A stretch of 64,000 nucleotides of DNA, taken from the NCBI RefSeq assembly GCF_000026545.1, contig NC_011601.1; one strand, given 5' to 3'. A program made the position numbers. Of the stretch, positions 26,201 through 29,200 are shown one piece after another; the first letter of the stretch is position 1, and each line of letters starts with the position of its first letter. This stretch comes from Escherichia coli O127:H6 str. E2348/69. Its GTDB lineage: Bacteria; Pseudomonadota; Gammaproteobacteria; Enterobacterales; Enterobacteriaceae.

Positions 26201-29200
26201 ATCTCTATTGGTATTCCTCACGTTCTGGAAATATCACCGACGGATGCTGCCGCCTTCGGGCAGCTTTTTACCGACTACGAACTGTTACCACCGTTCCGCC
26301 AGCTTGATCGTAACAGTTACGCGCTGACAGAAGCCGAGCGCAATGCCAGCGAACTGACACGCTGGGCAGGCAGAAAATGCCCGAGTGGTCGGGTAATGGG
26401 GCTGGCAAATAAAGGCTGGATGCGTGGTGAACCGCAGGACGGTGGCTGGATCGGCTGGATGATCAAACCTCTGGGCCGCTGGTCGTTAATCATGGAAATC
26501 GATGAAGGTTTTGCGGTCGGCATGTCGCCAGCCGAACTCAGTGCCGAGCAACTCTTAAGCAAGCTGTGGCTATGGGAAGGCAAGCGGAAAGCTATGGCTG
26601 GGGGAGTAATTCAACACAGGAAGCGCAGTTCTCCGTACTCGATGCCATCACCGCCAGCGAGCTAATTAACGATATTGAAGCCCTGTTTGAATAAGGAAAG
26701 AGCATGGACAAGGAATTACCGTGGCTGGCGGATAACGCCCAACTGGAACTGAAATATAAAAAAGGCAAAACACCACTCAGCCATCGCAATTGGCCAGGCG
26801 AACCGGTACCTGTTATCACTGAAAACATCATTCAGACACTGGGTGATGAATTGCTACAAAAAGCAGAGAAGAAAAAAAACATTGTCTGGCGTTATGAAAA
26901 CTTTTCACTGGAGTGGCAGTCCGCCATCACGCAGGCCATCAACTTGATCGGCGAACACAAACCCTCAATCACGGCCCGGACAATGGCGGCGCTAGCCTGT
27001 ATCGCGCAAAATGATAGCCAACAGTTGCTCGACGAAATCGTCCAACAAGAGGGGCTGGAATATGCAACTGAGGTGGTGATTGCACGCCAGTTTATTGTAC
27101 GGTGTTATGAGAGTGATCCTCTGGTAGTAACATTGCAATATCAGAACGAGGACTATGGCTATCGCTCAGAAACCTATAACGAATTCGATCTCCGATTGCG
27201 TAAGCATCTCTCTCTGGCAGAGGAAAGCTGCTGGCAGCGTTGCGCCGACAAACTCATTGCCGCACTGCCAGGAATAACCAAAGTTCGCCGCCCTTTTATT
27301 GCGCTGAACCTCCCGGAAAAACCCGAAATCGCCAACGAGCTGGTAAGCCTTGAATGTTCGCAAACTCATTTTCGCTCAAAAGAGTGGTTAAAAGTTGTTG
27401 CTGATGACCCTAAGGCGGTGAAAGAACTCGCACGCTACTGGAGCCAGGATATATTTAGCGATCGAGAAACCAGCTACATGTCGCATGAAAACCACTTCGG
27501 TTACGCGGCCTGCGCTGCCCTTTTGCGCGAACAAGGACTGGCAGCCGTTCCGCGCCTCGCGATGTATGCACATAAAGAAGATTGCGGCAGTCTGCTGGTA
27601 CAAATTAACCATCCGCAAGTCATCCGCACCTTGCTACTGGTGGCTGATAAAAACAAACCCAGCCTGCAACGTGTGGCTAAATACAGTAAAAACTTCCCCC
27701 ATGCGACGCTCGCCGCACTGGCAGAACTGCGGGCGTTAAAAGCCCCCCCTGCGCGCCCTGGTTATCCCATCATCGAAGACAAAAAGCTGCCTGCACAGCA
27801 AAAAGCACGTGATGAATACTGGCATACGTTGTTACAAACGCTGATGGCATCGCAGCCACAACTGGCAGAAGAGGTGATGCCGTGGTTAAGTACACAAGCC
27901 CAGGCAGTGGTGAATAGTTATTTATCGGCACCGCTAAAACCGGTTATTGATAGCACCGATAATAGCTGTCTGCCTGAAATCCTCGTTTCACCATCGTGGC
28001 GTAGTAAGAAAAAAATGACAGCTCCACGTCTTGATTTGGCATCGCTCGAATTAACTCCGCAAGTTTACTGGCAACCAGGCGAACGAGAGAGACTTGCCGC
28101 CACAGAGTCTGCCCGTTATTTCAGCACGGGATCTTTTACGGAACGCATGGAACGAAAAAGTGGTCGAGTTGTACTACAGGAGCTAGGTCTTGGGGATGAT
28201 GTATGGCTGTTCCGGAATTATATACTGCCCGGCAAACTGGATGCGGCGCGCAAATCATTAGTGGTTCAGTGGCATTACTCCCCGCGCAGAGTAGAGGAAA
28301 TCAACAATGGCTGGCACTCCACGGAAGCAAAATCAGCCGAACAGGCACTTCGTTCCGGCGACGTTGAAGCGTTAATTAACATCTGGGAAAATGATAGCTA
28401 CTCGCATTATCGTCAGGAAAAGAGTGTCTGGAACCTGTATTTATTGGCACAGTTGCCGCGTGAGATGGCTTTGACTTTCTGGCTGCGTATCAATGAGAAA
28501 AAGCATCTGTTCGCGGGTGAGGACTATTTTCTCAGTATCCTCGGGTTGGATACATTACCTGGCCTGTTATTGGCTTTTTCACATCATCCAAAACAAACAT
28601 TTCCGTTAATTTTAAATTTCGGCGCAACAGAACTGGCCCTGCCCGTTGCCCGCGTCTGGCGACGTTTCGCGGCGCAGCGTGATCTGGCTCGCCAGTGGAT
28701 TTTACAATGGCCGGAACATACGGCTACTGCACTTATCCCTCTTGTCTTTACAAAACCCAGCGATAATAGCGAAGCTGCATTACTTGCCCTGCGTTTACTG
28801 TATGAACAAGGGCATGGCGAATTACTGCAAACCGTGGCAAATCGCTGGCAGCGTACAGATGTATGGCCTGCCCTGGAGCAATTACTTAAACTGGGTCCAA
28901 TAGAAATTTACCCGGCACGTATTCCAAAAGCTCCTGATTTCTGGCATCCGGTAATGTGGTCCAGGCCGTGCCTTATCAAGAATAATCAGCCTGTTACCGA
29001 TGACGCTCTGGAAATTATCGGCGAAATGCTGCGCTTTACCCAGGGCGGACGTTTTTATAGCGGACTGGAACAGCTGAAAACGTTTTGCCAGCCACAAACG
29101 CTGGCAGCTTTTGCCTGGGATCTCTTCACCGCCTGGCAACAAGCTGGTGCCCCCGCAAAAGACAACTGGGCATTTCTGGCGTTAAGTCTCTTTGGTGACG

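Follow-up and report, generated by a model that had tools for sequence, protein, structure and literature searches.

The molR (yehH) gene of Escherichia coli O127:H6 str. E2348/69 is disrupted close to its 3' end by the absence of one nucleotide, an AAA triplet of other E. coli being read as AA. This is very probably a real deletion (probability roughly 0.92), private among complete genomes to E2348/69 and its laboratory derivatives, and it represents simple mutational decay as opposed to recoding. The window, meaning the whole stretch of DNA that was analysed, comprises 64,000 nucleotides of contig NC_011601.1. Within it molR lies on the + strand, 3' of metG and 5' of yehI, and the annotated neighbours place the gene in the synteny metG - molR - yehI - yehK - yehLMPQ. 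Open reading frames downstream of molR/yehI encode AAA_5, DUF5682, VWA_CoxE and SWIM domains. The features of the gene and of its junction with yehI are as follows.

22898..26665, + strand: molR/yehH open reading frame, coding for 1255 aa of which the C-terminal tail is out of frame (ORF list, translation).
22913..23104, + strand: WGR domain, residues 6-69, intact and upstream of the frameshift (Pfam PF05406, E=1.2e-16, above the gathering score).
25862..26419, + strand: DUF4132 domain, residues 989-1174, intact and upstream of the frameshift (Pfam PF13569, E=2.1e-51, full profile 1-179).
26582..26583, + strand: site of the 1-nt deletion, which affects codon 1229/1230 and leaves AA against the AAA of other E. 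coli (alignment).
26584..26694, + strand: displaced native 3' coding segment in the -1 frame, AESYGWGSNSTQEAQFSVLDAITASELINDIEALFE, 36 aa, with the native TAA at 26692..26694 (translation, orthologues).
26585..26665, + strand: out-of-frame tail RKAMAGGVIQHRKRSSPYSMPSPPAS, 26 aa, with the premature TAA at 26663..26665 (translation).
26644..26688, + strand: coding region of the conserved C-terminal helix in the -1 frame, with the invariant Ser-Glu at 26656..26661 (AGC GAG) (30-sequence alignment, AlphaFold2).
26694..26706, + strand: start of yehI translation, with the AGGA ribosome-binding site (26694..26697), which overlaps the native molR stop, and the start codon ATG (26704) (sequence).

Read in frame 0, the molR product terminates in ...KRKAMAGGVIQHRKRSSPYSMPSPPAS, also given as ...LWLWEGKRKAMAGGVIQHRKRSSPYSMPSPPAS, at the TAA codon 26663..26665. 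No stop interrupts the -1 frame from 26506 onwards, its preceding stop lying at 26503..26505, and this frame carries the native tail with the terminal residues ...SELINDIEALFE. An earlier note, made from the sequence alone, had described a Ser/Pro-rich frame-0 end at 26665 and an adjacent frame stopping at 26692..26694, with the yehI ATG 9 nt further on; translation confirmed both. Alignment of 26520..26710 with strains S4, FY10 and K-12 MG1655 located the deletion itself, which converts GGCAAAGCG to GGCAAGCG and the codons GGC AAA GCG to GGC AAG CG. The note was thus right about the shift of frame and slightly out as to its place: it had set the entry into the second frame near 26584..26590, and the lesion at 26582..26583 is 1-2 nt upstream. 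At nt 3685/3686 the deletion falls within the final 3% of the gene, leaving 97% of the protein in frame. Codon 1229 still specifies Lys (AAA to AAG), the shift takes effect from codon 1230 and the stop is met 29 nt early. The conserved 36-residue tail of MolR is in this way exchanged for 26 unrelated residues, a change to 2.8% of the protein.

Comparison with intact orthologues identifies the displaced segment as the true end of the gene. The 36 residues encoded in the -1 frame are identical at 36/36 positions to the C-termini of the six intact orthologues that were translated, each of which ends ...INDIEALFE before its stop codon, and this degree of identity places the -1 frame far beyond a chance overlapping open reading frame. 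Extended to its last 40 residues, the repaired protein is likewise the same as that of FY10, MS 16-3, LF82, FDAARGOS_1304, O111:H11 88-19539 and SC467. The alignment to intact MolR orthologues that the earlier note had proposed as a check turned out as it had anticipated: the Ser/Pro-rich tail (RKAMAGG...PPAS) is absent from every intact orthologue examined, and all end at the native stop. Of the 17 other genomes sampled, 12 have an intact orthologue, and in each of these the molR stop is found 9 nt before the yehI ATG, which bears out the proposal that the genuine operon junction lies at 26694. Only the -1 frame encodes the MolR motif F..LD.I..SE..RD.E, the in-frame tail being unrelated to it; with its C-terminal motif out of frame, the E2348/69 gene is an orthologue by descent, though not an intact member of the family.

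Restoring the missing A in silico yields an open reading frame of 3798 nt encoding 1265 aa, so that a near full-length product, previously estimated at roughly 1264 aa, is indeed recovered, with the exact figure corrected by one. The repaired MolR is 98.4% identical to the proteins of LF82 and MS 16-3 over the full length, and the sole other difference in length from these two is an in-frame AAL repeat. Since the repaired protein aligns end to end and the remaining length difference is in frame, the deletion is the only disabling lesion in the gene. The repaired 1265-aa sequence itself has no exact match in a collection of 15 billion proteins, so no intact allele otherwise the same as that of E2348/69 was found there. 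The AAL repeat arises from an in-frame 9-nt tandem repeat at 24209..24235, (GCAGCACTG)x3, which is translated as AALAALAAL; LF82, FY10 and MS 16-3 each have one copy fewer than E2348/69 and FDAARGOS_1304 has two fewer. The repeat is, by comparison of these strains, a copy-number polymorphism.

The late frameshift could in principle have been introduced by sequencing or assembly, which was the other explanation entertained in the earlier note: the strain would then truly have AAA and encode an intact 1265-aa MolR. The lesion does lie in a short homopolymer, and a single base brings the frame back, but a run of 3 bases is atypical of homopolymer error contexts, and the deletion recurs in three complete assemblies that were deposited separately, in addition to the 2009 record FM180568. 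The exact 1255-aa product is also encoded by one ENA assembly and by two Logan assemblies of different SRA runs. This product, CAS09809.1/UniRef100_B7UFD2, the 'predicted regulator' of E2348/69, was found on 19 contigs in all, with sources comprising FM180568 (the 2009 Sanger genome), LT827011, LT903847, ENA ERZ761560 and Logan SRR5194732 and SRR1930252. Over stretches of 501 nt and 12 kb around the lesion the window is 100% identical to NZ_CP059840.2. The Logan contig from SRR5194732 carries the same molR deletion and has 1 SNP relative to the window over 6.8 kb (22669, in metG, A for G), which shows that it was not copied from that assembly. The SNP itself may derive either from a variant E2348/69 stock or close relative, or from an error in read assembly. 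As far as assemblies show, recurrence of the same product in independent assemblies excludes an error, and this explanation was rejected as exceedingly improbable. The orthologue ends, the 1265-aa frame regained on restoring the A and the recurrence across assemblies together support a true late frameshift in this strain, the first of the two possibilities that the earlier note had raised.

The distribution of the deletion was assessed with a query of 101 nt centred on the site, which matched 5,294 records representing 5,292 complete E. coli genomes. Among the matches listed, only 3 records are free of a gap at the molR site, and all belong to the E2348/69 lineage: CP059840.2 is E2348/69 itself, LT827011.1 is 'EPEC E2348/69 variety 2' and LT903847.1 is 'EPEC1', described as an 'artificial construct derived from EPEC E2348/69 variety 2'. 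The 57 other records among the matches listed have 102 bases aligned to the 101-base query, so the extra base is present in them. Over 12 kb, the nearest complete genomes outside the lineage reach only 97.8% identity. Nothing was found in a search of the literature for the accessions LT827011 and CP059840.

Programmed -1 ribosomal frameshifting or transcriptional slippage would allow full-length MolR still to be made, and the opening of the -1 frame from 26506, together with retention of the native tail and operon junction, speaks for such recoding. The signals that drive it were however not found. No slippery heptamer of the form X_XXY_YYZ occurs in any frame across 26500..26665, and the same interval has no long A/T runs of the kind needed for polymerase slippage, TTTT and GGGGG being its only homopolymers of at least 4. 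RNA structure at the molR-yehI junction does not exceed that of shuffled sequence, with a fold of -24 kcal/mol against -24.7 +/- 3.1 for the shuffles (z=0.22) in a model that does not include pseudoknots. Furthermore, true recoding sites are conserved, whereas the two-frame arrangement is confined to 3 records, one strain lineage, among the matches listed from the 5,292 matching genomes, and the orthologues are plainly in frame. The programmed frameshift genes of E. coli (dnaX at -1, prfB at +1 and insAB' of IS1) resemble the present case in that two overlapping frames encode one homologous protein. They differ from it in possessing a conserved slippery sequence and stimulators that are kept across species, while molR has no slippery site and is split in a single strain. 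Following the heptamer and homopolymer scan and the RNA fold, a programmed frameshift was rejected, and recoding of either kind has next to no likelihood. Mutational decay of molR thus remains the preferred reading.

The deletion is not new to annotation. PGAP treats 22898..26694 as one pseudogene, 'DUF4132 domain-containing protein, frameshifted'. Its length of 3797 nt would need one more base to be divisible by three, and the label 'frameshifted' is applied in all three assemblies of the E2348/69 lineage (H4J01_RS09150, BQ9544_RS12405 and BQ9550_RS13145). The RefSeq pseudogene H4J01_RS09150 is the same feature as that described here; RefSeq does not give the exact site, which is now placed at 26582..26583, AAA to AA. 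The gene is a frameshifted pseudogene in the PGAP sense, for its frame changes and one indel restores full-length alignment to LF82. In INSDC and UniProt, by contrast, the 1255-aa product (CAS09809.1, B7UFD2) appears as an ordinary 'predicted regulator', in conflict with RefSeq. The molR frameshift is therefore already known from RefSeq, and it is an ordinary strain-private pseudogenising mutation.

The consequences for the downstream gene appear limited. yehI (26704..30330) is intact and encodes 1208 aa (WP_000356767.1). As it retains its own Shine-Dalgarno sequence and ATG, yehI should still be translated. The upstream stop lies 38 nt before the yehI ATG in E2348/69 versus 9 nt in the native arrangement, from which at most some termination-reinitiation coupling would be lost. 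Any polar effect on yehI should, to judge from the sequence, be small. The RNA fold of the junction gives no sign of a sequestered yehI Shine-Dalgarno sequence. A perfect 8-bp complement, CCGCCAGC (26651..26658) and GCTGGCGG (26723..26730), flanks the molR-yehI junction and forms the main predicted stem. Structure-dependent translational coupling to yehI was considered in view of this complement and rejected, the fold energy being no better than that of shuffled sequence (z=0.22, as above).

Lesions are also seen elsewhere in the neighbourhood. In strains YJ1 and MEI1-1023, yehI is a pseudogene with an internal stop (4906..8538 of the excerpt taken from each of these strains) and molR is intact, the reverse of the situation in E2348/69. 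In E2348/69 itself yehK (30391..30707) has a 1-nt deletion at about 30569..30570, with CC in place of the CCC of K-12 and O111. This yehK deletion is shared with LF82, and PGAP annotates yehK as frameshifted in S4, MS 16-3 and FDAARGOS_1304. Its occurrence in LF82 and these other strains makes the yehK lesion look older and more widely shared among related strains.

The segment lost from MolR is conserved well beyond E. coli. A search with the C-terminal 323 aa of the protein returned 188 homologues, many distant ones covering 98-100% of the query. Thirty of these, at 41-77% identity, were aligned over the tail; they come from Cupriavidus, Burkholderia, Paraburkholderia, Massilia, Rhodoferax, Actinokineospora, Dactylosporangium and Myxococcales, and include the paralogue YehI. 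The family's final segment follows the pattern F..LD.I..SE[LV][IL]RDLE, with S and E present in 30/30 sequences, D in 28/30 and L in 26/30. The DUF4132 C-terminal family as a whole is widespread, extending from Proteobacteria to Actinobacteria and Myxococcota. An AlphaFold2 model of the C-terminal ~323 aa (25717..26694) has a mean pLDDT of 91.7 and a pTM of 0.85. In this model the last beta-strand (275-285) ends at the frameshift site, which corresponds to fragment residue 287, and beyond it come a loop with pLDDT ~71, a short bridge and a terminal helix (308-322), the block having a pLDDT of 95-96. Conservation of the lost tail across phyla, together with the confidently predicted terminal helix, makes loss or impairment of MolR function likely. 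On the strength of the alignment and the model, the 1255-aa MolR is probably inactive, impaired or unstable, its terminal helix being gone.

It could instead be argued that the change is functionally neutral, the 1255-aa protein working with its new tail and the allele being no pseudogene. Both the WGR and DUF4132 domains are intact, with Pfam scores for the E2348/69 mutant protein as good as those for LF82 MolR, only 2.8% of the protein is changed, and the original INSDC and UniProt annotation is that of an ordinary protein. Nevertheless, the replaced segment is the family's most conserved C-terminal motif, in which Ser-Glu is found in 30/30 sequences, YehI included, and it forms a confident helix in the predicted structure. 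Repeated decay of the gene in other strains, described below, moreover suggests weak selection as opposed to preserved function. A neutral variant is hence quite unlikely, and an impaired MolR is to be preferred.

Of a role in molybdate metabolism, the literature carries only the historical name 'molybdate regulator'; BglJ-RcsB has been shown to activate the molR promoter (PMC3950696). Pfam detects only the WGR and DUF4132 domains in MolR and no DNA-binding domain. A sequence search of the PDB with MolR returned only the WGR-domain match 2ra8, chain 2ra8_A of which spans the same stretch of the protein as the Pfam WGR domain, and NCBIfam gave only a sub-threshold match in the WGR region. Foldseek comparison of the C-terminal AlphaFold2 model with the PDB found nothing at E<=0.001, the best hit having E=0.054 and TM ~0.1, and PADLOC gave no match for MolR, YehI or YehLMPQ.

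The E2348/69 allele belongs to a locus that has been damaged many times. Seventeen genomes were sampled outside the E2348/69 lineage: the DUF4132 gene adjoining yehI is intact in 12 of them and disrupted in the other 5, as follows.

S4: truncation by IS26 and CTX-M-15.
K-12: a stop and a frameshift.
Strain 155: a frameshift.
AR_0114: an internal stop.
2017.06.04CC: IS1.

The earlier note was correct in describing molR as a multi-fragment pseudogene in K-12, where an in-frame stop occupies codon 275 and a +1 insertion is found near nt 2861. The K-12 pseudogene (molR_1/_2/_3; yehH) is the same orthologue between metG and yehI and is likewise inactivated. In K-12, however, early and mid-gene lesions have left the gene in three parts, while E2348/69 has one late deletion, and on the sequences compared the two sets of lesions are independent events. 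A further case is provided by ST131 sublineage L1a, in 184 isolates of which the DUF4132 region is reported to be disrupted by TnMB1860 (PMC9334617). This disruption of the metG/DUF4132/yeh region by a blaCTX-M-15 transposon affects the same gene and is again a lineage-specific inactivation; it differs in being a transposon insertion with loss of the N-terminus, whereas E2348/69 has a point frameshift.

The surroundings of molR vary in other ways. A third tandem WGR/DUF4132 gene is found upstream of the yehI-adjacent copy in MJ-T, S1-CAM-04-C, strain 155 and U1; of these extra copies only that of U1 is intact, those of MJ-T and S1-CAM-04-C being frameshifted and truncated respectively and that of strain 155 interrupted by an internal stop. 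The yehI-adjacent copy of MJ-T has 74% identity to E2348/69 MolR, and the proteins of O111:H11 88-19539 and SC467 only 88.5%. Relative to the latter two strains, a diverged block with small indels lies at ~24660..24840 (residues ~590-650), where WNWEPH--KPGEGA corresponds to YIWYSKHITVSHEEST in E2348/69. Over its 3' 501 nt the region matches ST131 S4 at 99.8% identity, yet over 12 kb the best match from beyond the lineage reaches 97.8%. These comparisons give the locus a mosaic look.

It is possible to imagine that the array of WGR/DUF4132 genes following metG, made up of molR, yehI and in some strains the third copy, is a fast-evolving, conflict-type locus in which loss or remodelling of copies is selected, and that the E2348/69 allele, its two domains preserved and its terminal helix exchanged, is a separation-of-function variant that is not dead. 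This suggestion draws on the variable copy number, the identity of only 88% between phylogroups, the repeated independent lesions and the neighbouring MoxR-VWA-SWIM genes yehLMPQ; it is very unlikely. Ordinary decay of molR remains the reading adopted here.

The present analysis agrees with RefSeq over INSDC and UniProt and fixes the lesion to one base, and has little import beyond annotation hygiene. Anyone working on MolR, YehI or the yeh cluster in E2348/69 needs to be aware that MolR in this strain is predicted to be without the conserved C-terminal helix of its family. With regard to the species, the deletion in E2348/69 adds one further independent lesion at a repeatedly decaying E. coli locus.
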